From Deltaproteobacteria bacterium (GTDB taxonomy: Bacteria; Desulfobacterota; Desulfomonilia; UBA1062), in assembly GCA_018434685.1 (NCBI GenBank), contig JAHDOV010000003.1:28302-92301 (forward strand): a stretch of 64,000 nucleotides of DNA, written 5' to 3'. Position numbers and translations under genes: made by a program. Of this stretch, positions 5,563 through 59,448 are shown in pieces. The notes under the pieces are model-generated. The model searched no databases, was not told where the DNA came from, and saw only the letters and a program-made list of their open reading frames with translations. Each line of letters begins with the position of its first letter. Position 1 is the stretch's first letter.

Positions 5563-5755
5563 CCGGACACGGACGGGTTACCGGAGAGTAACCAGGATTA
5601 CAAACCGATGGTAATCTCAGTTACAAGCCGGTAACCGGTGTAACCGCCGAAATTTAGTCGCCCAGCCTTTATAATTCATCAACATACTGAAAACACTTAA
5701 TAAATTATAATTTTAAGACGTGTCACATATTTGGCACCAGCCTTGCCTTATAGAC

Positions 5756-5786
5756 CCCCAGATCGGAACAACGATCTGGGGGGTAT
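5756..5786 (+). promoter_or_regulatory. 11-bp-stem hairpin overlapping the SD/GTG start of the protease gene
   Basis: CCCCCAGATCG-gaacaa-CGATCTGGGGGG lies immediately before the GTG start at 5790. Its 3' arm contains the G-rich ribosome-binding region. Confidence 0.4.
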
Positions 5787-5789
5787 AGG

Positions 5790-7151
5790 GTGAAAGACTT
5801 TAGAGCAACGCTTATCGGACTCGTGGTATTCAGTCTCGTCAGTGTACCGGCATTTCCGGCCGAGTATAAACCCGACGAGGTCATTGTGAAGTTCAAATCG
5901 GATCATCCCCTGACTGCTTCCATGGTGAGAGGTGACGAGAACCGGGCCATGACCGTTGCCGTGGACGACGCCCAGGAGGCAATCCGGACGCTCGAGACCA
6001 TGGAGGGTGTAGAGTATGTCGAGCCCAACTATGTGATCGAGGCGGAGAGCATACCCAATGACTGGCCGTATGAAAACAGCGAGTGGGAAGATACCGGTCT
6101 GCCCGGGGCCTGGGATCTCGTCGAGGAAGCCGGTCCCGGTTCCCAGGTGATTGTCGCGGTCATCGATTCCGGGGTCGATCTCGATCATCCGGAACTCGAG
6201 GACATCCTGATCTCGGGATACGATTTCGCGAACAACGATGCCGTCCCCGAGGATGACACCGGGCATGGCACCAGGGTCTGCGGCATACTCGGTGCCCTGG
6301 GAGATAATCTCTCAGGCATCGCGGGGGTCGCCTGGAACTGCGATATCGTTATCATGCCCCTGAAGTTCATGAAGAATAACGACGGCAAGACAACGGGGAG
6401 TCTCTCCGATGCCATCGACGCCATCTACTATGCCGTTGATCACGGGGCGGATGTCATAAATGCGAGCTGGGGCTTCTACTCCTACTCCGGGTCGCTGGAG
6501 GAGGCAGTCCGCTACGCCCGCGACCATGGGGTATTGTTCATTGCCTCTGCCGGCAATAAAGCCCAGGACAACGACACGAACGACCACTACCCGTCGAATT
6601 ACCCGTTGGACAACATCATCGCCGTAGCCGCCATGAACCGCTACAATGATCTCGCGTCGTTCTCGAACTATGGAGAGAACAGCGTGGATATCGCCGCACC
6701 GGGCGACGGCCTCAAAACCACGGATCTTGGGGGAGGCTATGCGAGCTGGGTATCGGGAACCTCGTTTGCGACCCCTTTTGTCACCGGGGTTGCAGCCATG
6801 ATGATCTCGCAGTTTCCGGATCTGGACTATCTTTCGGTTCGGGTTGCCCTGCTCGATGCCGCGGTGCTCGATGCGGGTTACAGCGAGAGGCTCCTTGAGA
6901 GCGGCGGGTGTGTAAATGCATACAATGCACTCCTGGCAGAGGAAGACGCGGATGTCTTTTCCAGGGCCTCGAGTGCTTCGGCCCAGTCTGATCCCACAGG
7001 GACAGGTTCTCAGGTCAGTGGCGAATCAGGAGGAGGCGGGGGCGGCTGCATGATCGAAAGCACGAGAAATGCAGGCAATGCCGCCGGTATGGTCATCTCC
7101 CTTATGTTGATAGTCTTGTTCCCCATGTTGCGCGCGAAACATCGGGAATAA
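5790..7151 (+). CDS. Secreted subtilisin-like serine protease (peptidase S8) with C-terminal Gly-rich/Cys-TM-basic tail
   Basis: Signal peptide, catalytic D (VIDSGVD), H (HGTRV) and S (GTSFATPFV) blocks. The tail is GGGGGGC followed by a hydrophobic helix and RAKHRE. Confidence 0.9.
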   Translation: MKDFRATLIGLVVFSLVSVPAFPAEYKPDEVIVKFKSDHPLTASMVRGDENRAMTVAVDDAQEAIRTLETMEGVEYVEPNYVIEAESIPNDWPYENSEWEDTGLPGAWDLVEEAGPGSQVIVAVIDSGVDLDHPELEDILISGYDFANNDAVPEDDTGHGTRVCGILGALGDNLSGIAGVAWNCDIVIMPLKFMKNNDGKTTGSLSDAIDAIYYAVDHGADVINASWGFYSYSGSLEEAVRYARDHGVLFIASAGNKAQDNDTNDHYPSNYPLDNIIAVAAMNRYNDLASFSNYGENSVDIAAPGDGLKTTDLGGGYASWVSGTSFATPFVTGVAAMMISQFPDLDYLSVRVALLDAAVLDAGYSERLLESGGCVNAYNALLAEEDADVFSRASSASAQSDPTGTGSQVSGESGGGGGGCMIESTRNAGNAAGMVISLMLIVLFPMLRAKHRE

Positions 7152-7157
7152 CCTATA

Positions 7158-7205
7158 CCCCTGCCCCCCCTTTCACCAAGGGGGGGCAAACCCCATATTT
7201 TTTTT
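7158..7205. terminator. Bidirectional intrinsic terminator between convergent genes
   Basis: GC hairpin TGCCCCCCC-tttcaccaa-GGGGGGGCA followed by a T-run (TATTTTTTTT). Confidence 0.7.
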
Positions 7206-13154: not shown

Positions 13155-13281
13155 AAAGGCGATACTGCGGGTCGTCATCGCCACCGGAAGAGCCTTCATC
13201 GTCCCCCGGCCTTATACGATCCGTGAGCCTTGGGATCTTCATAGCCGGCTCATCTATGGGGTTCTATGCCATGACATAGTT

Positions 13282-13469
13282 ATGTTACTTTCTTTGCTTG
13301 CACAAGAGAAAGTAACCAAAGAAATGCACCCCACGAAGCCGCCCTTTCGGGTGCGTTCGCTCACTCGGGAAAAATCCGTTCGCAATTAAACTCGCTCCAT
13401 TTCATTCCGCTCAGACAAAATTGCTCATTTTCCGGATTTTTCCCTCCCTCGCTCACCGGCTTCGAGGGG
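13282..13469 (+). repeat. Left terminal inverted repeat (~190 bp, hairpin-rich) of cassette
   Basis: It begins ATGTTACTTTCTTT...AGAAAGTAAC (a 10-bp-stem terminal hairpin). It contains GGGAAAAATCCG-N55-CGGATTTTTCCC and ends at ...CGGCTTCGAGGGG. The reverse-complement copy at 16300-16491 is ~80% identical. Confidence 0.85.
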
Positions 13470-13637
13470 ACCCATCCCGGGTGCTGAACCGCGACTCAAC
13501 AGGAAAATATTGGAATCTGCGTGCTCTTTGCCATAAAGAAGACAACCAACCTCTTATCAACGAACTGCACATATCCATTGGAGATCTTCAAAATAATCCG
13601 TCTTGGGAAATTGAATAGTTATCGCAGTTATATTTAC

Positions 13638-14405
13638 TTAGAAGTTTGAGATGCAAGAGGAGCGCATGGACATGACACATAGTTTTTCTCGCTTAGGGTA
13701 AGGTTGATTGTGAGCTAACATTAATTTTCTATATTTCTTTACCGTTCTAGGCGTAGCGGCAATCATTATGTATCTGTGTTTTGGGGTTAAAGGTATAAAT
13801 TTTAACTTTGGGTCATATTCACGGAGCTTTGATAAATCCCTTGTTCCAAATTTTTTCCTAACTTTCCATCCGGACATTTTCTTCCCAAGAATATAATAAT
13901 TACCCTGTCCTTTGGGATCCGTAAGACCAGTATAAATAGCATTTGATGCCTGATAAATAGTGCCAATCTCATAAAATTGAGTATCAGCATAAGCGATAAT
14001 TATTGATGATCCTAACTTATTATACATTGCCCTATTGGCTCGAGCAATTAAATGAGTTGCAGTGCATATAGGAGCATTGAAAGAACAGCCACCACGACAA
14101 AGTTGGATTATGTTACATCTGAGTTCCTTGGCTAACTGACTTATCCATCCACGATTTTTAGAAAAACATGTTGTTCCATATGAAACTACACCAAGTAATT
14201 TATCATTATGTTTCAATCCCCAATGCCATACCCCTAAACCGACATCCCCTAAATGCTCATATATCCCCATGAATTCTTGAGCCTGATTTCTGGGAATATT
14301 AACAAGAGTAGTATGACTAAGCTCAGATGAAGATAACATTATATATCTTATGTAATTTTTGGTTCTTTTCCTAGAATTAAGCATCCCAATAAAACTGTAG
14401 CCCAT
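13638..14405 (-). CDS. Hypothetical protein (255 aa; unknown function; cassette cargo gene 2)
   Basis: Long ORF in AT-rich DNA, 3' to and overlapping (or abutting, if the start is the internal Met at 14339) the 344-aa ORF. Basic C-terminus. No motif I can assign; weak Rx5H near the C-terminus. Confidence 0.5.
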   Translation of the reverse strand: MGYSFIGMLNSRKRTKNYIRYIMLSSSELSHTTLVNIPRNQAQEFMGIYEHLGDVGLGVWHWGLKHNDKLLGVVSYGTTCFSKNRGWISQLAKELRCNIIQLCRGGCSFNAPICTATHLIARANRAMYNKLGSSIIIAYADTQFYEIGTIYQASNAIYTGLTDPKGQGNYYILGKKMSGWKVRKKFGTRDLSKLREYDPKLKFIPLTPKHRYIMIAATPRTVKKYRKLMLAHNQPYPKREKLCVMSMRSSCISNF

Positions 14406-15382
14406 TTTAACAGTTCAAATAGTGATGACAATGGAAAGCTTGCTAAATCTTGCAATACAATTAAGACGGCAAGGATGAGTGCTATTATAAAAGTTTTAGA
14501 AATTAACATTTGAGATGATATTTTCAATGGATATTCCAATGAATATAGTATGTTACTCTCTTGATATACAAATACTTCGATAAAAGACCGTATATCCGAT
14601 ATCTTAAATGAGCTTTTGGGCGTAAATAAATTTTTAACGCTGTTTGTTTTAGCACCCAATACTATTCTTCCTGAGCTATGGGGAAATAACGGATTGTTAA
14701 ACTTGATTAAAATTGATTTATCAACACTGCCTTTATCAGGGTCATAATATGTAATATTAAAATCATATGTATTATCAGATTCTAAAGTAATAACATTTGA
14801 TTGCACTGGTAATAGTTCTTTCCCCTTAATTGTTTCATCTTTTAAGGATATTTTCAGTAGCGGCAAATGATCTTCTGATAATTTCTTTGTCTTTGATAAA
14901 TTTTCTACAACTATAAACCAATAACTACTGTCGAAAGATAGCTCATCGGAATATTCTTTGCCTACTTGCATATAATAACCATCGTTAATGTTACAAGGAT
15001 CTTGCCCTACTAGCTCTGGTATGCCTTTAACCGATTTCTTAAGTTGATAAGTGAACTCCTCATAATTTTCAGTCTGGCAATAATCTCCAAATGAGCATTC
15101 TACATGTAGGCGATTAGCGTTAACTTCAGAGCTTAAAACTTTTGCTTTTCTGATGGGGTAATATTTATAAGAGCCTTCATTGAATCTATCTACATAAATT
15201 ATTAAACAATCCATTCCTGATAAATCTTTTCCAACCAATTCAGAGGGGACATTTTGACCTATAGTGTAGCGAAACGTTGTAGTATAATAATTTGGAAAAG
15301 ATAATATTTTAGAAATATTATTCTTGTAAAGAGGTCTTAAAGCTGAATTAAAAACATACAGTATTTCGTTCTCCATAACCAC
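14348..15382 (-). CDS. Hypothetical protein with ~270-aa soluble N-terminal domain and two C-terminal TM helices (cassette cargo gene 1)
   Basis: 344-aa ORF with an AT-rich promoter region upstream (15383-15720). The C-terminal hydrophobic segments are FIIALILAVLIVL and WATVLLGCLILG. No recognisable catalytic motif. Confidence 0.55.
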   Translation of the reverse strand: MVMENEILYVFNSALRPLYKNNISKILSFPNYYTTTFRYTIGQNVPSELVGKDLSGMDCLIIYVDRFNEGSYKYYPIRKAKVLSSEVNANRLHVECSFGDYCQTENYEEFTYQLKKSVKGIPELVGQDPCNINDGYYMQVGKEYSDELSFDSSYWFIVVENLSKTKKLSEDHLPLLKISLKDETIKGKELLPVQSNVITLESDNTYDFNITYYDPDKGSVDKSILIKFNNPLFPHSSGRIVLGAKTNSVKNLFTPKSSFKISDIRSFIEVFVYQESNILYSLEYPLKISSQMLISKTFIIALILAVLIVLQDLASFPLSSLFELLKWATVLLGCLILGKEPKIT

Positions 15383-15723
15383 CTACAAAAAATGATTTCA
15401 TTAGAAATATAATTTTATGATATTAATTGTATAACAATAATTTGAAATGATATCTATAATTATTGAATATCTAGTGAAATATCACTCTCTTTATGATTTA
15501 ATGCTTATTCCAAGTCTATCAAAATGATAGAGCACGTGCCATACTGTGTAATCAGATTTTGATTGAGATTTTGGATACATATCACAAGGAAATCTTTCAC
15601 CCATAATATGAGTCCTTTTGATCCTATCTCCATTTCGTTCCGACTTTACTCAATTGCTCTTGATTTGGTGATACATCAGATTAAATAATGAATAATGTAA
15701 TCCGATTTTTAAGGTGAAAAAAC

Positions 15724-16113
15724 ATGAAAGAGATCGAAATAGAACTAGTTATATTTCTATTAATTATTTTATGTTCATGCACAACAATTAAAACATCACA
15801 AGAAATAATACCAAAAAACAATTTAATATATTCTGCACCATACGATAAAGTGTATAACTGCTCAATTAATGCCCTCATGGCTCTTGGATGGCAAATAACG
15901 CATTCAAATAAGGATGAGGGCTTGATCCAAGCTAAGGCACCTATGTCCTTGTGGACTTGGGGAGATCTAATTACAGTACATATTATTAAGGAATTCCCTG
16001 ATAAGGTAAGAGTAGATGTGACATCAGGCTCACCACAACAGTTTGACTGGGGTAAAAACAAGAAGAATATAGAAGCATTTTACGAAGAGTTAAAAAAGCA
16101 ATTAGAAGATTAA
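15724..16113 (+). CDS. Small secreted/lipoprotein-like hypothetical protein (cassette cargo gene 3)
   Basis: N-terminal hydrophobic helix ending ...LIILCSC (a lipobox-like Cys), then a 105-aa hydrophilic domain. Divergent from the two-gene operon. Confidence 0.45.
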   Translation: MKEIEIELVIFLLIILCSCTTIKTSQEIIPKNNLIYSAPYDKVYNCSINALMALGWQITHSNKDEGLIQAKAPMSLWTWGDLITVHIIKEFPDKVRVDVTSGSPQQFDWGKNKKNIEAFYEELKKQLED

Positions 16114-16299
16114 ATATATAATTAGCCAGCCCTAAGTGCAGTTAAAGGACCGCTTAATCAGTTGTCCGATACAACAACTACATATAACGTGCCATTATCG
16201 GGATTCGCCTGATAGTGAACATAATTTTGATATGTGACATCTTCCTCTGGTTCAAAAGTGTGTGATCGTACTGGAATAACTCGGCACCAGTCCCAATCC

Positions 16300-16491
16300 C
16301 CCCTTGAAGCCGGCGAGGGAGTGCAGGAAAAATCCGAAAAACGAGCACTTTTGTCTGAGCGCAGCACAGCTGCGCGAGTTTAAGTGCGAGCGGATTTTTC
16401 CTGTGCGAGTGAGCGTACCTGCCAAAGGCAGGCGGCTTCGCGGGGTGCATTTCTTTGGTTACTTTCTTTATGCAAGTAAAGAAAGTAACAT
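16300..16491 (-). repeat. Right terminal inverted repeat (~190 bp) of cassette
   Basis: Its reverse complement aligns with 13282-13469, with the same order of hairpins and compensatory substitutions in the stems (CAGGAAAAATCCG...CGGATTTTTCCTG versus GGGAAAAATCCG...CGGATTTTTCCC). Confidence 0.85.
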
Positions 16492-16787
16492 AAGAATATT
16501 GAATTTAATCCATCTTGCAATAAATCCAGGTCGGACCAGAATAGCATCCGTCGATAATCTCCCGCCGTGCAGTGACACAGGCTGGCGGAGTCGATCGTCC
16601 TGAACTCCGGGCTTTTCCTGAGGTTTAGGCTCTCCGGGCGTGTCTGGGCGAAAGGTGGTGGCGGAGACTGTTTCTGCCCTGATAACGGTGTGGTATAGAG
16701 CAATTCAGCGTGCCTCAACAGGTTTTGCGGTGTTGATGCAACCGCCGGTTCTATGGTAACGGATCTCTCACACTAGGAGGGAAAACA

Positions 16788-18173
16788 ATGGCTAAGAAGA
16801 TGATGGCTGCTGTCCTGATCATGTCTGTATTTCTTGGGTTTGCATGCACTGCCAAAGCGCAGGATCCTGGCCCGTACGAGGGAGACTGGGTGGCAGATGT
16901 GGTGGAAGCGGTTCTTCCCTCAGTGGTGAATATCTCCTCCATGAAGACCGTGGTGTATCAGTCGCCGCTCTTTTCCGACCCGTTTTTCCGGGAGTTCTTC
17001 GGCGGCGGGCTCGCTCCCCAGGAGCGGGTGCAGCGGGCGCTCGGTTCAGGGGTCATCATATCCGAAGACGGGTACATCATTACCAATAACCACGTCGTGG
17101 GCGGCGCCGACAAGGTGGAGGTGCGGCTTTCGGACGAACGGGTCTTCGCCGCGCAGATTATCGGCACCGACCCCAAGAGTGACGTGGCCATCATCAAGAT
17201 CGATACAGGAGTGCTTCCTGCAATCAAGGTGGGAGATTCCTCAAACCTGAGGATCGGGAGCTTCGTCCTGGCCGTGGGCAATCCCTTCGGCCTCGAACAG
17301 ACCGTGACCATGGGGATCATCAGTGCGCTGGGAAGGTCGGGGCTCGGCATCACCGACTATGAGAACTTTATCCAGACCGATGCGGCCATCAACCCCGGCA
17401 ACTCGGGCGGGGCCCTGGTGAACATGAAGGGTGAGCTCATCGGGATAAACACGGCCATCCTCTCGAGGACCGGCGGCAGCGTGGGGATCGGATTTGCCAT
17501 TCCCATCAACCTGGTCATGGGAATCAAGAAGAGCATCGAGCTCTACGGCGAAGTGGTCAGGGGATGGCTCGGCGTGACCGTGCAGGAGATCACCCCCAAG
17601 ATCGCCGAGGCCCTGGCGCTGCAGACCACGAGGGGGGTCCTGATTTCCGAGGTGACAAAGGGTTCCCCTGCCGAAAAGGGCGGCATCAGGCAGGGAGATG
17701 TCATCGTCTCCCTGGACGGAAAACCGGTACACAACTCTGCTGCCATGAGGTTCCTCGTGTCGGAACACCTCCCGGGCAGTTCCATAAAGGTGGAGGTGAT
17801 AAGGGACGGCAGGCCCAAGACGCTGAGCGTGACCATCGGGGATCTTGCAAAGGCGCAGGAACCCGAGGAGAAATTGATCATCGAGGACAACAGGTTCCTC
17901 GAGGGAGCCACGGTTGCCGACATTACCCCTGCCACCCGGGAAACCCTCGAGATCGGTGAGGAAGTCGAGGGGGTGCTCGTCATTGCGGTGAGGGACAACT
18001 CCGCAGCTGCCCGGACCGGATTGCGGCCCGGTGATGTCATTGTCCAGATCAACCGGCAGAAGACCGTAGGGCTCAAGGCATTCGAGGCCGTGCTCGAGGG
18101 GCTCACCGGAAGAAAGATGAGCATCAGCCTCTACCGGCAGGGCATGGTCATGACCCTGACCATCGTGAGATAG
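16788..18173 (+). CDS. degP: Periplasmic serine endoprotease DegP/HtrA (trypsin domain + 2 PDZ)
   Basis: Signal peptide. Catalytic triad regions HVV, D (DVAIIKI) and GNSGGAL. Two PDZ-like C-terminal repeats. Confidence 0.93.
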   Translation: MAKKMMAAVLIMSVFLGFACTAKAQDPGPYEGDWVADVVEAVLPSVVNISSMKTVVYQSPLFSDPFFREFFGGGLAPQERVQRALGSGVIISEDGYIITNNHVVGGADKVEVRLSDERVFAAQIIGTDPKSDVAIIKIDTGVLPAIKVGDSSNLRIGSFVLAVGNPFGLEQTVTMGIISALGRSGLGITDYENFIQTDAAINPGNSGGALVNMKGELIGINTAILSRTGGSVGIGFAIPINLVMGIKKSIELYGEVVRGWLGVTVQEITPKIAEALALQTTRGVLISEVTKGSPAEKGGIRQGDVIVSLDGKPVHNSAAMRFLVSEHLPGSSIKVEVIRDGRPKTLSVTIGDLAKAQEPEEKLIIEDNRFLEGATVADITPATRETLEIGEEVEGVLVIAVRDNSAAARTGLRPGDVIVQINRQKTVGLKAFEAVLEGLTGRKMSISLYRQGMVMTLTIVR

Positions 18174-23824: not shown

Positions 23825-24370
23825 ATGACATGGCAAGATAAAATCGAGAAGATCACGAGCAAAACGGTACCATTATACGCAATGATAGTCCTGCTGGTGA
23901 TCTTTGCCAATCCCTCGGTGGCATCCTGCCTTGTGGGGTTCATGTTCGTTCTGGCAGGCGAGGCCCTGCGGGTCTGGGCAACAGGACATCTCAGAAAGAA
24001 TGAAGAACTTACCACCTCCGGACCCTATGCGCACCTCCAGTCACCCCTGTACCTCGGGAGTTTCATCATCGGGACGGGTATGTGCATCATGGCGAGGAAT
24101 CCGGTTATCTGGGTGCTCATGAGCATCATCTTTTTTACCTCCTACATACCGAGGAAGCAGGAGCGGGAATGGGGGAGACTGGAAAAGATGTTCGGCGAAG
24201 AATTCCTCAAGTACAAGAAGGCAGTGCGGTACTTCATGCCGACGATGGAACCGTATCCGGAAGGTGCCAAGCACCTGTGGTCCTTTGCCATGATCATCGA
24301 AAACACCGAGCACCAGACCGCCGCTGCAGTACTGTTCATCGGCTTCCTGATCGTTATCCGCCTGTTTTAA
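23825..24370 (+). CDS. Isoprenylcysteine carboxyl methyltransferase / phospholipid methyltransferase-family membrane protein
   Basis: Multi-TM protein ~180 aa. C-terminal ICMT/PEMT-like block TSGPYAHLQSPLYLG...EE..L...FGEE...Y. Confidence 0.65.
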   Translation: MTWQDKIEKITSKTVPLYAMIVLLVIFANPSVASCLVGFMFVLAGEALRVWATGHLRKNEELTTSGPYAHLQSPLYLGSFIIGTGMCIMARNPVIWVLMSIIFFTSYIPRKQEREWGRLEKMFGEEFLKYKKAVRYFMPTMEPYPEGAKHLWSFAMIIENTEHQTAAAVLFIGFLIVIRLF

Positions 24371-25757: not shown

Positions 25758-28700
25758 TTGATGTGTGATGATGTAATTGCGTGCCCACGCTGTGGAGTGG
25801 TTGGCGGGCGTTCGGACAGATTCTGCAGACACTGCGGCGTATCCCTGGATCACGGGGGACACGTCCGTGAATATCGCCACGTAACCGCCCTGTTCTCCGA
25901 CCTGTGTGAATATACCCCCCTGACCGAGGAACTCGAACCCGAAGAACTCAAGGATATCATGGACACCCTCTTTGCGAAGTCTGCCCACATCATTGCCGCA
26001 TACGGCGGGAGTGTGGAAAAGTTTGTGGGAGACGGGGTTGTCGCCCTGTTCGGGCTGGACGATATGCACGAGCACCATGCCGTTTCGGCAATTCACGCCG
26101 CACGGGAGATTCACGGGTTTGCCCGCGAGATTGCCGGTGAGTCGTATCCCTGCCTCGGCAGGGGAATCTCCATGCATACCGGCATCAATACCGGCCTGGT
26201 GCTCGTAGATCAGCAGTGGGATGACCGCAATGCCCACGGCGCCTTGGGCACGCCGATCAACATCGCATCCAGGCTTTCAGCCCTGGCAGGCCCGGACGAT
26301 ATACTCATCGGGGAGACGGTCATGACCGATGCGGCGCGTCATTTCACCATCGAAGGCATGGGGAAAAAGCGTCTCAAGGGTGTCCGGGAACCGATGAGGG
26401 TGTTCCGGGTCCTTTCCGCCAGAGAGGTGCCGGTAGGCATCCACCGGCAAGGCGGCATCACCTCGGGCCTGATCGGCCGAAAGAAAGAGCTCGCAGCCCT
26501 TGTGCATGCCTTCGATAACCTGCTGGAGGGGAAGGGTTCGGCGGTGTGTATACACGGGGACCCGGGCGTGGGGAAAAGCAGGCTGATACACGAGTTCAGG
26601 AAACAGGTGCCTAAGCGGACCAGATGGATACATGCCCAGTGCCTGGACCATACGAAAGACACCCCCTACTGTCCGATAACCGGCCTCGCCAGGGCCCTCC
26701 TGGGGATTCGTGAGGGAAGGGACAGCAGGGAAGAGGTGGAAGAGAAGATCAGGGCGTTTTCTTCGGATATGCGGCACAGCGCCTCCCTGATATCTCTTTG
26801 CAACGCGCAGGCCTCTGCCATGCAGGTGATGCCCGGTGAATGGAAGGCCGGGATCTGCGATGCATTCTCATGGCTGATCCGCTCTGCCGGCACTGTCTCG
26901 CCTCTTGTTGTGTGCATAGAGGATATTCACTGGGCGGACCGCTCTACCCTTGACCTGCTGGAATATCTTTTCCAGGACAGGGAGGCAGCAGGCTCGTGTC
27001 TGTTCCTCATCAGCACACGGGCCGTCTCAGAGCTGATCCCGGTTAGTGCGCACATTGGGTTGAACGATCTGGACCGGACAGAAGTTGCAGCAATGCTCGG
27101 GCACATGCTCGAGGGAAATCGTATCCCGGAGGCGGCTGTAACGTATCTGTACCGGGAAACAGGGGGGAATCCGTTCTACATCGAGGAGGTGGTCAACTAT
27201 CTTTTCGAGAAGGGCATTTCCCTGTCGCAGTGTGCTCACGGGGAGATCCCGGGCGGTGTTCCCTCGACCATTCAGGGGCTCATCGCGGCTCGTCTGCTGA
27301 ACCTCGGTGCGGAACTCAAGACGCTGCTGCAGGAGGCATCGGTAATCGGCAAGGTGTTTCCGAAGACCCTCCTGGCGGCGGTAAGTACCCGGCAGACGCA
27401 GTTCGATGCCGGCCTCTGGGGTCTTCAAGAGGCCGGGTTCATCCATGAGTCCGAATCCGGTGAATACCGCTTCCGGCATGCGCTGACCCAGGAAGTGGCC
27501 TATCAGACCCAGCTGAAGCGCCACCGGATGATGATGCACAAGAAGGTGGGCCGGGCACTGGAGCGGATGGGGCGGGCTCCGGGAGATATCTGCGACATGC
27601 TCGCCTACCATTTCGATTGTGCCGGTGAAAAAGACCTCGCGATTCAGTACAGTATCATGGCCGCCCGGAAATATCAGGCCGAGGGAGCATGGGTGGAAGC
27701 TGCCGCCCACTATAGGATCGCCGAGAAATGGCTGCTCGTGACCGCTGAGGCGGACCGTGACCGGGAAGGCCTGGCAGCAGTATGGGAAGGGATCTGGTCA
27801 TGCGCCCGTATCCTCGACCCGAACCTGGCCGTTCGGGCACTGGAATCCCTCCGAGGGCATCATGCCCGCTCTGGCGCGAGCCGGGGCGAGGCCTTTGTGC
27901 TGATCCGCCTCATCAACCTCTATTCTCAAAAGGGTCTGTTCAAAGAAGCTCTCGATACCTTTGAGCAGGCCCTTGAGAGTGCAGGGGACGATGGGATCCT
28001 CCGCAGTGCTGCGCAGACCGCTGTTGCCTACACCTACACCTATCTCGGCAGGCCGGATGTTTCTCTGGGGTATCTGAACGAGGCGAGGCCGGCCCTGGGG
28101 ACGGCGGACAGATTTCTCCTTGCCGTCAACCACCTCACGACCCTTACCGCCTATGTCTGGAAGGGCGCCGTACAGGAAGCCATGGCATGGTACTCGCAGA
28201 CGAAGGACCTCTGCGGGGACTACCTGGATCTCGAACTCATGGCGGAGATCTACCTGGGATACCTTCATTACCTCAGGGGCGATTTCCCTCGGGCGCGGCA
28301 GGTATTCGAGCTGGTGCACGCCCAGGAGAGGAAACTCGGCAGTCTTGCGGGGGGATTATCGTACCTGAGAATCCAGAGCTCCATATACTTCAATGCCCGC
28401 TATACCGGAGAGCTCGACAGGGCCGGTGAAGAGCTCAGGATGTTCGAGGCGCTCGATAACGGGATGAAGGGCTTCCCGGCGCTGATAAGCCTCTATCGCG
28501 CATGGATCGCGGTGGAGAAGGGACAGTGCGAACAGGCACGGGATCTGCTCATGATGGCGCTGCCGGTTTTCGAAGAGGGGATTGCGAACAGGGTTCCCTA
28601 TGCACTCAACGTCCTTGCCGAGGCACTGGAGACCATGGGGGACACCGAGGGGGCCGAACGGGTTGCGCTCAAGGGCATTGCCTGGAATGAACTCAACGGC

Positions 28701-28997
28701 AATCAGGATCAGCTTGTCTGGGCACTGAGGATCATGGGACGGCTCTATCTTCGCCAGGAGATGTTCGATGAGACCCGTGACGCCTTGAAGAGGGCCTCGT
28801 TTCTGGCCAGGGCGTGTTCCATGCGGCCGCACACTGCATGGACCCTGGAGTCCTGGGGAGATTATTTTCGGTCGACGGGTCAGGCAAAACGGGCGGATGC
28901 CTGTTATCACAGGGCTGTGGCCCTGTGGAGAGGGATGGCTAATCCGTATCAGGCAGGCAAACTGTCTTCACGGATTATCAACACGGGGCATTCCTGA
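25758..28997 (+). CDS. Multidomain signalling protein: N-terminal Zn-ribbon, class III adenylyl/guanylyl cyclase domain, STAND/AAA+ P-loop NTPase, C-terminal TPR repeats
   Basis: CPRCG...CRHCG zinc ribbon. Cyclase core ALFSDLCEYT...KFVGDGVVALFG. Walker A GDPGVGKSRL. Long helical TPR-like C-terminus. Confidence 0.85.
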   Translation: MMCDDVIACPRCGVVGGRSDRFCRHCGVSLDHGGHVREYRHVTALFSDLCEYTPLTEELEPEELKDIMDTLFAKSAHIIAAYGGSVEKFVGDGVVALFGLDDMHEHHAVSAIHAAREIHGFAREIAGESYPCLGRGISMHTGINTGLVLVDQQWDDRNAHGALGTPINIASRLSALAGPDDILIGETVMTDAARHFTIEGMGKKRLKGVREPMRVFRVLSAREVPVGIHRQGGITSGLIGRKKELAALVHAFDNLLEGKGSAVCIHGDPGVGKSRLIHEFRKQVPKRTRWIHAQCLDHTKDTPYCPITGLARALLGIREGRDSREEVEEKIRAFSSDMRHSASLISLCNAQASAMQVMPGEWKAGICDAFSWLIRSAGTVSPLVVCIEDIHWADRSTLDLLEYLFQDREAAGSCLFLISTRAVSELIPVSAHIGLNDLDRTEVAAMLGHMLEGNRIPEAAVTYLYRETGGNPFYIEEVVNYLFEKGISLSQCAHGEIPGGVPSTIQGLIAARLLNLGAELKTLLQEASVIGKVFPKTLLAAVSTRQTQFDAGLWGLQEAGFIHESESGEYRFRHALTQEVAYQTQLKRHRMMMHKKVGRALERMGRAPGDICDMLAYHFDCAGEKDLAIQYSIMAARKYQAEGAWVEAAAHYRIAEKWLLVTAEADRDREGLAAVWEGIWSCARILDPNLAVRALESLRGHHARSGASRGEAFVLIRLINLYSQKGLFKEALDTFEQALESAGDDGILRSAAQTAVAYTYTYLGRPDVSLGYLNEARPALGTADRFLLAVNHLTTLTAYVWKGAVQEAMAWYSQTKDLCGDYLDLELMAEIYLGYLHYLRGDFPRARQVFELVHAQERKLGSLAGGLSYLRIQSSIYFNARYTGELDRAGEELRMFEALDNGMKGFPALISLYRAWIAVEKGQCEQARDLLMMALPVFEEGIANRVPYALNVLAEALETMGDTEGAERVALKGIAWNELNGNQDQLVWALRIMGRLYLRQEMFDETRDALKRASFLARACSMRPHTAWTLESWGDYFRSTGQAKRADACYHRAVALWRGMANPYQAGKLSSRIINTGHS

Positions 28998-56047: not shown

Positions 56048-57916
56048 ATGGAACAGAAGAAAAGCATGTATGGTCTCTTTGCTGTCCTCCTCGTCGTGCT
56101 CATTTTCGGGGTATATTTCAACATCCTCGACAACGAGCCCACGAACTGGGACGACCCGGCGCTCTTCCTGCGCACGGCGATTCACGAGATCAGCCTCGAT
56201 AACCTGAAGAAGGTCATGGCCTTCAGCAGTGGCTCGACCTACCAGCCGGTCCGGGATCTCTCCTACATGATCGATTTTGAACTCTGGGGCAGCGGTGTCG
56301 TCCTGGGCATGCACCTGCACGGGCTGATCCTGTATGCACTCATGATCCTGGCCTGCTGGCTCTTTCTCCTCGAGCTCTTCAAGGCATTCTCCGACGACCA
56401 CGCGCTCTGTTTCATCTGGGCGAGCCTTTCAGCCGTGATCTTTGCCGTACACCCGGTGCACGTGGAGAGTGTCACCTGGCTCTATGCGAGAAAGGAGCCG
56501 CTGCTGGGCCTGTTCACCTTCGTGAGCCTCTGGGCCTTTGTCCTGGGCAGGACGCATCACTGGAAATACTATGTCCTGAGCGTAGTCGGCCTCGTGCTTG
56601 CGGTCCTGTCAAAACCCACGGCAGTCATGATCCCCGGGGTCATGATCGCGTTGGATCTCGCGATTCAGGCACACCGGAGGGAGCCGTCATTCTGGAAGAA
56701 GAGGCTCTTTGTCTATATCCCCATGTTCGTGGTGGCAGTGCCCATGGTCATCCGGCTGCTGAGCGTCATGTACCAGGTGGGCGGGGTAAAGCCGTATCAT
56801 GGCGGAAGCTTCTGGACCAATCTCCTGGCCGTATCCCAGATCATGATGGGGTATGTGTCGCTCATCGGCTTCACGATCAACTATGCGGCCGACTATCCCA
56901 TAGAGCTCTACGCACACGCCCATGCATGGCAGGCGTGGGTGTTCGTGGCATTGAATGTCCTGCTCCTGGCGAGTGCCGTGGCAGCCTCTGTCAGGAAGCA
57001 CTACCTGTATGCATTCTTTGTGGCCTGGTACTACCTCTTTCTCCTGCCGGTATCCCACATCTTCCCCATCTCTCAGGTCATGGCCGACCGGTATGCCTTC
57101 CTCCCGTCGCTGAGCTGGTGCGTTCTGGTAGGATTTCTCCTGGCGAAACTCTGGCACCTGAAGCTGAATTCGAAGATGTTTTCACCCGAGTTCCCCAGGC
57201 TCATCGCCGTGGCGTTGTTTTCCGTGCTGGTGCTGTCGTACTCATACATGACCCACCGGCAGAACGATATCTGGCAGAACTCGCAGGTGCTCTGGGAGGA
57301 TACCCTGGCGAAATACCCCGATTCCTCCCCGGCAAACGTGAACCTCTCCGCGATCTATCTCAGGCAGGGGAGGTTCAAGGAGGTCCAGGATCTCTGCATC
57401 ACCGCCATCAAGGCCAAACCGTATGATTATCTCGCCATCAGCAACCTGGCACTGGCCCAGATGATGATGAAGCAGTACGAGCACGCCAGGCACAACTACC
57501 TGCAGGCCCTCAAGCTCAAACCAGATCTGCCCAAGGCCGAAATGGGCCTTGCCAATACCTACTGGGAGACCGGCGAGTATGAAAAGGCCCATGGGCTGTA
57601 TACAAAGCTCTTCCGGGAAGGCAATGTCATCAATCCCTACCATGCCGCGCAGTACACCTGCCGGCTCGGCTATTCATCGTGGAAAATGGGCAGGAAGGAC
57701 GAGGCCTATGAATTCCTGGGCAGGGCCGGGCTTTTGTCCCGGGACAAACCCCTGCTCCTGAAAGAGCTCGGCATGGTCTATACCAGTATGGGCGATGTCC
57801 CCAGGGCGCTCGAGACCTTTCATGAGGCCATCCCGCTGTTGAAGGACGAGGAGCTCAAGGGGAAACTGCTCCGCCTTCTCGATCTGCTGGAGAAACAGAC
57901 CGCTCAAGCCTACTGA
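56048..57916 (+). CDS. Polytopic membrane protein with C-terminal TPR repeats (TMTC/PMT-like, DUF1736-type)
   Basis: ~11 predicted TM helices over the first ~400 aa, then TPR-like repeats (…AIYLRQGRFKEVQDLC…, …ANTYWETGEYEKA…). Confidence 0.65.
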   Translation: MEQKKSMYGLFAVLLVVLIFGVYFNILDNEPTNWDDPALFLRTAIHEISLDNLKKVMAFSSGSTYQPVRDLSYMIDFELWGSGVVLGMHLHGLILYALMILACWLFLLELFKAFSDDHALCFIWASLSAVIFAVHPVHVESVTWLYARKEPLLGLFTFVSLWAFVLGRTHHWKYYVLSVVGLVLAVLSKPTAVMIPGVMIALDLAIQAHRREPSFWKKRLFVYIPMFVVAVPMVIRLLSVMYQVGGVKPYHGGSFWTNLLAVSQIMMGYVSLIGFTINYAADYPIELYAHAHAWQAWVFVALNVLLLASAVAASVRKHYLYAFFVAWYYLFLLPVSHIFPISQVMADRYAFLPSLSWCVLVGFLLAKLWHLKLNSKMFSPEFPRLIAVALFSVLVLSYSYMTHRQNDIWQNSQVLWEDTLAKYPDSSPANVNLSAIYLRQGRFKEVQDLCITAIKAKPYDYLAISNLALAQMMMKQYEHARHNYLQALKLKPDLPKAEMGLANTYWETGEYEKAHGLYTKLFREGNVINPYHAAQYTCRLGYSSWKMGRKDEAYEFLGRAGLLSRDKPLLLKELGMVYTSMGDVPRALETFHEAIPLLKDEELKGKLLRLLDLLEKQTAQAY

Positions 57917-59448
57917 GTCAGTTCCAGCGGCGAGAGCCTGATGAGGGCGTACGTCTCGTGATCCTCGAACGAGGAGATGAGGCTCGTGTACATGCGCGAG
58001 TTGAGCCCTTCGATGAGGTCGTCGAGATCATCCGTGCTGGCGGCAAGGTAAACGCTCTCGCCTATGGGAACAATCTCCCTGTTCACGACGATGGGCTGTA
58101 CCCCTGCATACTCTATGTACCCCCTCATCACGAGGTCGTCGCGGTAGACGATCAGCGGCGAGTAGGTGGACATCTCCTCGATCGAAGAGATGGGCGCGGA
58201 TGCCTTGGCCGGAAGCTGCAACAGGGCCACTGACCAGGTCAGGACAGACACGGCCGCGACACACAGGGCGATCATGGCGGAATAGGAGCGCCTCTTGACG
58301 AGCCAGAAAAAGACCAGGGCGGCCACGAGAAAAAAGCCGAGGCCGGCTGCGCTGCCCATGTCCAGGCTGAGGCTCGATATCGGATCGAGAGACAGCATGA
58401 CCAGGGCCGGGGCAATGATGACGGCACCGGTCAGTGCCAGACAGATGCCCCGGATGAACTCCACCTTTAATGGTGAACCGAAGCCGTGTGCGACCCAGTA
58501 GCCCGCGAGCATGGCGCCGAAGGGGACGCATACAACGGCAAGCCCGGGGCTGTAACGGGGGGCAAACAGGATGATCGCCAGACCGACGGCAAAGGCGGTC
58601 TTTACCGGAAGCAGAGATCTCCAGGCATCCCTTGCCTCGTCGACCTCGGTATGGATCCATGCCGGAAGTACGAGGGGGAGCCAGGGCAGCGTGTAGAGCG
58701 TGAAGGCCTTGAGTCGGGAGAACAGCCCCGCGCTTTCGCCCTGGGAGAACACGGCCGTGACAAAGGCAGACCCTGCCGCGATTCTATAGGTGAGGTATGC
58801 AGCACCCAGAACGCCTATCGCCAGGAGTATCCCCCACGGTGCCCGGATTTCCAGGAGCCTTCCCGGGGAGAGATCGAACAGGATGAGCAGCAGGATGCCG
58901 AAGGCGAAAAATGCCAGCATGGGCCATCCGCCCGTGATGGTGGACAGGCAGACCAGCACGTACGCCGGGATATACCACCAGGAGTTGTAGTTTTTTATGT
59001 ATATCAGGGAAAAGAGCAGGAACGAGAGGATGCACATGCTAGCCGGGATGACTGCGACGTTGAGCGTGCCGAAGGTCAGGATGAATCCGAGACTCGTCAG
59101 GGTGAGCAGCGCTGAGATCGCCGCCGACTTCATGTCCCACAGCAGCAGGGCGTAGATGCCTGTGCCGGCAGCCACCGCGCACCCCAGCAGGATGCTCGCC
59201 AGCCGCAGCGAGACGATATCCGAGAAGGGGACGAGCGAAAACAGCAGGACGGCTATGGGATTCTGGCCGGTCAGGGGCAGCCCGTTGAGCGTCGGCACGA
59301 GATGGAGGCCTGCGTGCATGTCCCGGATGGCCTGAAACAGCCAGATCTCCCTGCTGCCCGGCACGGGCCCCAGGGCCAGCGGAGAGAGGAGGATGATGCC
59401 ACACACGACAACCCCCAGGACAAAAAAAAGAGCCCGAAAGAATTTCAC
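57910..59448 (-). CDS. Polytopic membrane glycosyltransferase-like protein (ArnT/PMT GT-C fold family)
   Basis: ~12 TM helices, a C-terminal soluble domain, and GT-C-like N-terminal loop residues. Convergent with the TPR membrane protein. Confidence 0.55.
   Translation of the reverse strand: MKFFRALFFVLGVVVCGIILLSPLALGPVPGSREIWLFQAIRDMHAGLHLVPTLNGLPLTGQNPIAVLLFSLVPFSDIVSLRLASILLGCAVAAGTGIYALLLWDMKSAAISALLTLTSLGFILTFGTLNVAVIPASMCILSFLLFSLIYIKNYNSWWYIPAYVLVCLSTITGGWPMLAFFAFGILLLILFDLSPGRLLEIRAPWGILLAIGVLGAAYLTYRIAAGSAFVTAVFSQGESAGLFSRLKAFTLYTLPWLPLVLPAWIHTEVDEARDAWRSLLPVKTAFAVGLAIILFAPRYSPGLAVVCVPFGAMLAGYWVAHGFGSPLKVEFIRGICLALTGAVIIAPALVMLSLDPISSLSLDMGSAAGLGFFLVAALVFFWLVKRRSYSAMIALCVAAVSVLTWSVALLQLPAKASAPISSIEEMSTYSPLIVYRDDLVMRGYIEYAGVQPIVVNREIVPIGESVYLAASTDDLDDLIEGLNSRMYTSLISSFEDHETYALIRLSPLELTQ

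Follow-up and report, generated by a model that had tools for sequence, protein, structure and literature searches.

The stretch of DNA analyzed here, 64,000 nucleotides from a Deltaproteobacteria bacterium (GTDB lineage Desulfobacterota, Desulfomonilia, UBA1062; assembly GCA_018434685.1, contig JAHDOV010000003.1, positions 28,302 to 92,301 of the forward strand), is called the window below. It encodes an S8 subtilase, at positions 5790 to 7151, whose C-terminal tail raises the question of whether the protease is sorted and processed or simply held in the membrane. C-terminal tripartite sorting tags determine which proteins bacterial surfaces display, and the processing enzymes of the Cys-containing tag classes were identified only in 2023-2025. 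An earlier note, made from the sequence alone, had described the tail as a Gly run ending in Cys, a hydrophobic helix and a cluster of Arg/Lys/His residues, and the C-terminus of the open reading frame (ORF) reads exactly as quoted there. We found that the tail, on a subtilase that is otherwise ordinary, is best described as a short version, so far uncatalogued, of the CFI-box, a putative sorting tag that is known but unpublished.

Architecture and conservation of the subtilase tail

The gene and the parts of its product are as follows.

5790 to 7151, + strand: S8 subtilase gene (ORF and Pfam), with a GTG start, encoding 453 amino acids (aa) plus stop
5790 to 5861, + strand: N-terminal signal peptide (residues 1-24, MKDFRATLIGLVVFSLVSVPAFPA, then EY), with a hydrophobic helix at residues 2-18 in the AlphaFold2 (AF2) model
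5856 to 6029, + strand: fervidolysin-type N-propeptide (residues 23-80; PF22148, E 1.5e-6)
6138 to 6866, + strand: Peptidase_S8 catalytic domain (residues 117-359; PF00082, E 5e-53), with Asp126, His159, Asn256 and Ser325
6939 to 7028, + strand: Ser/Thr/Ala/Gly low-complexity linker (residues 384-413), pLDDT below 50
7029 to 7061, + strand: signature motif GGGGGG-C-M-I-E-S (residues 414-424), delimited by conservation; the Cys420 codon, TGC, lies at 7047-7049
7062 to 7079, + strand: polar spacer TRNAGN (residues 425-430)
7080 to 7130, + strand: hydrophobic transmembrane (TM) helix AAGMVISLMLIVLFPML (residues 431-447) with a conserved V-L-F; helical at 431-443 in the AF2 model
7131 to 7148, + strand: short basic end RAKHRE (residues 448-453), delimited by conservation, predicted cytoplasmic and ending in Glu

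The catalytic domain scored 180.6 bits against PF00082 (cutoff 21.8) and contained the Asp/His/Ser triad and the oxyanion Asn, as expected for peptidase family S8. Its nearest solved structures were AK.1 protease (1dbi, E 1.6e-47) and thermitase (1thm), both of which, unlike the protein studied here, lack a membrane tail. The signal-peptide cleavage site, inferred to follow PAFPA, was placed by eye. An AF2 model built on a 63-sequence alignment gave a confident S8 core (mean pLDDT 80.8), left residues 388-429 (the linker, the Gly run and the C-M-I motif) disordered, and placed a single helix at the C-terminus. Docking of the motif onto the protease, which we considered as a role for it, is unsupported, since the segment is disordered in this model. 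Judged from its sequence, the subtilase is with near certainty an exported, catalytically competent, thermitase-like S8 pro-enzyme, and the C-terminal helix with its positive-inside end puts the protease domain, about as surely, at the periplasmic face of the inner membrane. The window has 244 ORFs with a length of 80 aa or more, and only in the subtilase do a hydrophobic C-terminal helix and a basic end follow such a motif.

Next, we analyzed the conservation of the tail in 120 homologues obtained by database search. These were 48-100% identical to the query, came from metagenome-assembled genomes (MAGs) labelled Desulfomonilia, Deltaproteobacteria, Syntrophaceae or Thermodesulfobacteriota, and included one sequence (P0001) 100% identical to the window subtilase. 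Tail positions were counted over 118 of them, and Cys420 and the catalytic residues over all 120. The tail was kept in nearly all homologues. Cys420 was present in 120/120, equal to each of Asp126, His159, Asn256 and Ser325 (120/120 each), and its distance to the C-terminus was exactly 34 residues in 86/118. The residue before the Cys was Gly in 107/118, the next was Leu, Phe or Met in 112/118 (48, 35 and 29 sequences, respectively), and the second after it was Ile in 112/118. The third was mainly Glu or Asp (74/118), otherwise His (14) or Gln (9), and the fourth was Thr or Ser. At its end the helix, of roughly 17 residues, read V-L-F-[Q/R] across the homologues, with 2-3 basic residues after it, and the last residue of the protein was Glu in 83/118 and Gly in 22/118. 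Information content was 3.04 bits per column for the Gly run plus CxI and 3.24 for V-L-F. By the same measure the catalytic domain reached 3.15 and the linker 1.65; the spacer value, 1.51, was taken over residues 425-433 and so includes the first three residues of the helix part. The alignment therefore indicates that the tail is a selected, position-specific module and not a chance arrangement, because the Cys is invariant, the spacing is fixed and the motif is conserved like the active site. Since the other Cys columns varied, and nine homologues lacked Cys at 164, 184 and 374 (the query's other three Cys positions), an obligate intramolecular disulfide involving Cys420 appears unlikely.

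These results bear on two explanations that need no sorting. In the first, the tail would be a permanent type-I inner-membrane anchor on a mycosin-like plan, and its conserved elements would serve another role, for instance in dimerising or forming a disulfide between molecules, in binding a partner in the membrane, or in holding the protease in position. The weakly basic C-terminal end, finishing in Glu, is in keeping with such an anchor. However, a bare hydrophobic anchor would not require constraints of this kind: it needs neither an invariant Cys, nor an invariant spacing, nor a motif as conserved as the active site. We regard a permanent anchor as the main rival reading of the tail and a real possibility, albeit a doubtful one. 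In the second explanation, the motif would be the protease's own autoprocessing or shedding site, cut between C-[LMF] and Ile in cis or in trans, so that the enzyme releases itself from the membrane. Leu, Phe and Met are preferred P1 residues of subtilisin- and thermitase-type enzymes, which fits the residues found after the Cys, and the motif lies within a disordered, accessible segment of the AF2 model. This explanation, however, leaves the invariant Cys and the V-L-F in the helix unaccounted for, and we consider it improbable; the distribution of the motif, described below, counts against it further.

Relation of the tail to known sorting signals

The whole protein and the isolated tail were scanned against NCBIfam and Pfam at E<=10, and synthetic consensus peptides were scanned together with the real tail as positive controls. 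The control peptides were recovered for GlyGly-CTERM (26.6 bits, cutoff 15.5), MYXO-CTERM (38.1 bits, cutoff 20) and PEP-CTERM (37.1 bits, cutoff 16). Each of them also matched many other CTERM models, whereas the real tail matched none. The earlier note had proposed searches with the hidden Markov models (HMMs) TIGR03501, TIGR03901 and TIGR02595, and none of the three found the query at E<=10 while the controls passed. GlyGly-CTERM (TIGR03501) was rejected; its Gly-Gly would abut the helix, and here C-M-I-E-S and 6-9 polar or small residues lie between the six Gly residues and the helix. The protease VesB, processed through GlyGly-CTERM and rhombosortase, is likewise a secreted serine protease with a Gly-rich C-terminal tripartite tag. 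In contrast to the subtilase, it is trypsin-type and not S8, and in the subtilase the Cys and about 12 residues separate the Gly run from the helix. PEP-CTERM (TIGR02595 / PF07589) gave no match, and the tail contains no Pro-Glu-Pro. Synerg-CTERM (TIGR04564), CGP-CTERM (TIGR04288) and JDVT-CTERM (NF033191) gave no matches at E<=10 either; the presence of TIGR04564 and TIGR04288 in the model library was confirmed through weak matches of the controls. Synerg-CTERM differs from the tail also in having no spacer.

MYXO-CTERM was likewise rejected, as neither TIGR03901.2 (cutoff 20) nor TIGR03382 (cutoff 15.85) matched the query at E<=10. One homologue reached 15.7 bits on TIGR03382, through the helix and basic part only. 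Nevertheless, the likeness to MYXO-CTERM and its processing enzyme MrtX (TIGR03901; PMC11980579) is considerable: a tripartite tail of ~34 residues, an invariant Cys in a Gly-rich signature, Sec export, and a processing enzyme that is not encoded beside its clients. The differences are that in Myxococcota and Bradymonadales each genome has dozens of MYXO-CTERM proteins, and that this tag usually reads GCGC and has a Leu/Ala-rich helix and an Arg-rich end. The subtilase tail, by contrast, has a polar spacer and a terminal Glu, and in the 297 kb of loci and 1.84 billion cluster representatives searched (see below) it has one client family, seen once per locus and belonging to a Desulfomonilia lineage (MAGs labelled Desulfomonilia or Deltaproteobacteria). 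The resemblance to sorting signals claimed by the earlier note stands as far as the tripartite architecture goes, which is real and strongly conserved, but not for the GlyGly-, MYXO- or PEP-CTERM families it had named. The general shape and the near-threshold homologue are what speak for true membership of GlyGly-CTERM/rhombosortase, MYXO-CTERM/myxosortase or PEP-CTERM/exosortase; with every CTERM model silent on the query, no PEP motif, a Gly run set apart from the helix, and a lineage that is Desulfomonilia and not Myxococcota, we judge it highly improbable.

The best NCBIfam match of the whole protein was the mycosin of type VII secretion systems (TIGR03921, E 2.8e-54), a C-terminally anchored subtilase. 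This match, together with the failure of the tail on all curated sorting models, is in favor of the permanent anchor. The mycosin score, however, was 184.6 bits under an equivalog cutoff of 278.75, and the assignment was rejected. Mycosins share with the subtilase an S8 domain followed by a C-terminal membrane helix, but belong to Gram-positive type VII secretion loci, which are absent here.

A closer relative was indicated by the divergent members of the family, which read G-C-F-I-A/E-T-A. NF041763, the CFI-box putative sorting motif, is a model of 14 positions covering a Gly run and CFI, with a cutoff of 15.9 bits. Six F-variant tails scored 11.9-13.5 bits against it and a seventh (P0117) 9.1, with the Cys aligned at model position 8; the L and M variants, including the query, gave no match. 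NF041770, the CFI-box-CTERM domain (cutoff 40 bits, ~69 residues from the Cys), was matched by no family tail. The family nevertheless shows the architecture of the CFI-box, namely, a Gly run leading into Cys-hydrophobic-Ile near the C-terminus of an exported protein.

We then scanned metagenomes for G5-C-F-I-[A/D/E]-T-A, which yielded at least 120 stretches (loci L014-L133). Among the 120 matches listed, 98 carriers showed the canonical long form, in which CFIATAAYGS...LRxFRD...YYxxSPPxA... leads into a helix with a basic end; this form is NF041770 (~106 bits, cutoff 40). The long form is abundant in metagenomes, and its carriers among these matches had a median distance of 105 residues from Cys to C-terminus and were very diverse ORFs of 200-3300 aa. 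At least 13 of the 120 listed carriers were other S8 subtilases, 29-41% identical to the window subtilase. Short tails, consisting of a Gly run, CFI, about 10 polar residues, a TM helix and a basic end, were also observed on a TSP3-repeat protein (L067, 42 residues from Cys to end), on FN3 proteins (L015 and relatives, 46 residues) and on another subtilase (L066, 51 residues). The short form of the CFI tail is therefore modular, because it also occurs on TSP3-repeat and FN3 proteins, and the Gly-run/CFI element as a whole is a modular C-terminal tag often placed on subtilases. This counts against both explanations without sorting: against the permanent anchor, since the motif is a tag on many unrelated secreted proteins including other subtilases, and against autoprocessing, since its presence on many non-protease proteins means that its conservation is not tied to the specificity of the enzyme.

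Compared directly, the family tail and the CFI-box (NF041763/NF041770) share a Gly run leading into Cys-[Phe/Leu/Met]-Ile, small or polar residues, a C-terminal helix and a basic end, and both stand C-terminally on secreted proteins, with subtilases often among the cargo. The CFI-box-CTERM form differs in having a conserved domain of ~60 residues between motif and helix, with a median of 105 residues from Cys to end against 34 here. By these comparisons, the family tail is a minimal CFI-box version without the ~60-residue middle domain, which falls below both curated thresholds. No publication on the CFI-box was found in the literature searched.

Carriers of the tail, the search for a sorting enzyme and a possible pathway

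A tail HMM and motif regular expressions were run on the six-frame translation of 297 kb, comprising the window and 13 related loci, and recovered the orthologue only, once per locus. A 40-column tail profile searched against 1.84 billion cluster representatives gave seven matches at E<=1e-3, all from the same subtilase family; they were mostly short C-terminal fragments, with one full-length member. Full-length family representatives were mostly unrecovered, and this negative is limited by the choice of representatives: the main family clusters are apparently represented, at 50% identity, by sequences with no tail or with a divergent tail. The earlier note had asked how many proteins share the tail, and no close copy on another protein appeared in either search.

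The neighbourhood was of a housekeeping kind. The order purB ... tsaD - rsmA - S8 - thiolase - xerC - hslV - hslU ... htrA - dtd was conserved in 10/12 loci, and the subtilase gene therefore belongs, as judged from synteny, to the single-copy core genes that a Desulfomonilia-type lineage inherits vertically, and not to a secretion or mobile cassette. In one locus from a long-read MAG (L009, 10001-11220), the orthologous subtilase is split over two frames and matches over residues 1-405 only, owing either to a frameshift, which would make it a pseudogene, or to an error of assembly.

The absence of a sortase or rhombosortase from the window, claimed by the earlier note, was borne out among all multi-TM or unknown ORFs, the subset of window ORFs that was scanned. 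Its proposed search for sorting-enzyme homologues likewise found none nearby, in these ORFs or in neighbouring loci. In 20-kb neighbourhoods of divergent homologues no sorting enzyme was present, and nothing comparable to the adjacent enzyme of JDVT-CTERM was seen; no gene recurred as a neighbour beside the listed CFI-motif genes (at least 120). Two neighbouring genes of the window encode multi-TM proteins: one of 622 aa (56048-57916, + strand), with about 10 TM helices and TPR repeats at its C-terminus, and one of 512 aa (57910-59448, - strand), with about 12 TM helices, which matched nothing in Pfam or NCBIfam at E<=0.01. Neither fits an exosortase, rhomboid or CPBP model. A 181-aa, 4-TM protein of the PEMT/ICMT family is encoded at 23825-24370 (+ strand), 17 kb away from the subtilase, and there is no evidence of a link between the two; its match to NF040696, protein-S-isoprenylcysteine O-methyltransferase, was weak (29.6 bits, cutoff 160). 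ICMT is the enzyme that acts after Rce1 in eukaryotic CAAX processing.

We tentatively propose, at somewhat short of an even chance, that the tail is a short-form, Cys-dependent sorting or anchoring signal of CFI type, processed by an enzyme encoded elsewhere. The proposed sequence of events would begin with Sec export through the signal peptide of a protein in which a propeptide and a catalytic tetrad are followed by ~45 disordered residues as a tether and by a single C-terminal helix in positive-inside orientation. A partner would then, as conservation suggests, recognise two elements, the Gly-run/Cys/x/Ile motif beside the membrane and the V-L-F where the helix reaches the cytoplasmic side. 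By analogy with the MYXO-CTERM/myxosortase pair (PMC11980579), the invariant Cys would be modified, probably by lipidation, and an intramembrane enzyme whose gene lies elsewhere would subsequently remove the helix, leaving the protease lipid-tethered, surface-exposed or released. Tail cleavage and lipidation are entirely inferred from this analogy.

The precedents are as follows. In the pathway proposed for MYXO-CTERM, Sec export and temporary anchoring by the helix are followed by presumed Cys lipidation; the CPBP protease MrtX then cuts on the distal side of the Cys, before surface transport. The cleavage step has been partly demonstrated, and the MrtX gene is not beside its clients (PMC11980579; bioRxiv 10.1101/2023.06.07.544157). 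Cleavage of Cys-type tripartite tails by an unlinked intramembrane protease thus has an experimental precedent (PMC11980579) as well as a bioinformatic one (bioRxiv 10.1101/2023.06.07.544157). Sorting of a single client has a precedent in JDVT-CTERM (NF033191), which resembles the subtilase tail in serving a single client in each genome and in conserving residues within the helix; its enzyme MrtJ, however, is usually adjacent to the client, and nothing comparable adjoins the subtilase (bioRxiv 10.1101/2023.06.07.544157).

Several results weigh against a processed CFI-type signal. The query tail, a C-M-I variant, matches no curated sorting-signal model at E<=10, and no such model reaches its threshold with any family tail scanned. 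Close copies are confined to one subtilase family in the 297 kb and among the 1.84 billion representatives, and in the 297 kb the tag was not seen on unrelated proteins from one genome, the pattern by which a sorting signal is usually recognised. No CPBP protease, rhomboid or exosortase is adjacent or present among the multi-TM or unknown window ORFs scanned, unlike the single-client JDVT system with its neighbouring enzyme. Signals processed within the membrane have their motif right against the helix, and a polar spacer of 9-12 residues, a weak basic cluster and a Glu at the very end are not typical of them. The CFI-box is itself a putative sorting motif. A tail on one family only, once per locus, in a housekeeping neighbourhood and with no sorting enzyme there, is also what a permanent anchor would show.

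A more specific version of the proposal, which we consider rather unlikely, takes the tail as the smallest functional core of the CFI-box class. It would define a Cys-dependent pathway of Desulfomonilia dedicated to a single client, a core subtilase under sigma-54 regulation, with an unlinked enzyme that lipidates the invariant Cys, cleaves there, or does both. If it were true, a 40-residue module on one orthologous gene across many genomes would make the CFI-box enzyme identifiable by phylogenetic profiling. The main value of the family would be as a handle for finding the CFI-box processing machinery. The CFI-box is curated at NCBI, with no enzyme known. At present the family escapes all current tag models, and its annotation stops at "S8 family peptidase". 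A processed tail would show the essential parts of a CFI-type signal and provide a one-gene marker for finding the enzyme; an unprocessed one would warn that a tail with three parts and a Cys may be no more than a membrane anchor of one lineage.

Expression signals and other features of the window

The consensus promoter and terminator scan around the subtilase gene gave nothing useful. The following elements were first spotted by inspection and then tested.

5732 to 5746, + strand: sigma-54 type -24/-12 promoter element, TGGCACcagccTTGC
5745 to 5791, + strand: leader hairpin (-33.3 kcal/mol, z -7.0), which buries the G-rich Shine-Dalgarno sequence (GGGGGG, 5778-5783) and reaches the GTG start
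7162 to 7205, no strand assigned: GC-rich hairpin (7162-7188; -23.2 kcal/mol, z -3.9) followed by a run of eight T (7198-7205), between the convergent subtilase and thiolase genes

The promoter element was the sole match to TGGCAYN5TTGC in the 64 kb window, compared with 0.13 expected, and its TGGCA and TTGC were invariant in 10/10 orthologous loci. At the sequence level, a predicted sigma-54 promoter of the form TGGCAC-N5-TTGC(A/T) is thus present just upstream of the gene, and rpoN itself lies within the window. An equivalent of the leader hairpin was observed upstream of every orthologue; its covariation support is weak, with one compensatory pair. The hairpin at 7162-7205 was uncalled by the consensus terminator scan, owing to its loop size and its distance to the T run, and is probably a terminator shared by the subtilase and thiolase genes. 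The subtilase gene looks like a monocistronic, sigma-54-dependent unit, and the leader hairpin may gate its translation. In the pathway proposed above, the sigma-54 promoter would drive expression through a leader hairpin that sequesters the ribosome-binding site.

The window contains no tRNA gene. At 13280-16493 lies a low-GC island (GC 0.32 against 0.57-0.60; third-codon-position GC of its ORFs 0.25-0.30), bounded by imperfect terminal inverted repeats of ~190 nt (13280-13469 and 16300-16493). It encodes a Mom-family protein (13638-14405, - strand), a 344-aa protein with two TM helices and no family match, and a 129-aa lipoprotein-like ORF. The island is an insertion specific to this genome, because it is missing at the syntenic position in the five related loci L005-L009. 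Two further genes are ordinary-looking: an HtrA/DegP-type protease with a Trypsin_2 and two PDZ domains (16788-18173, + strand), and a 1079-aa signalling protein with adenylate/guanylate cyclase, AAA_16 and TPR parts (25758-28997, + strand).

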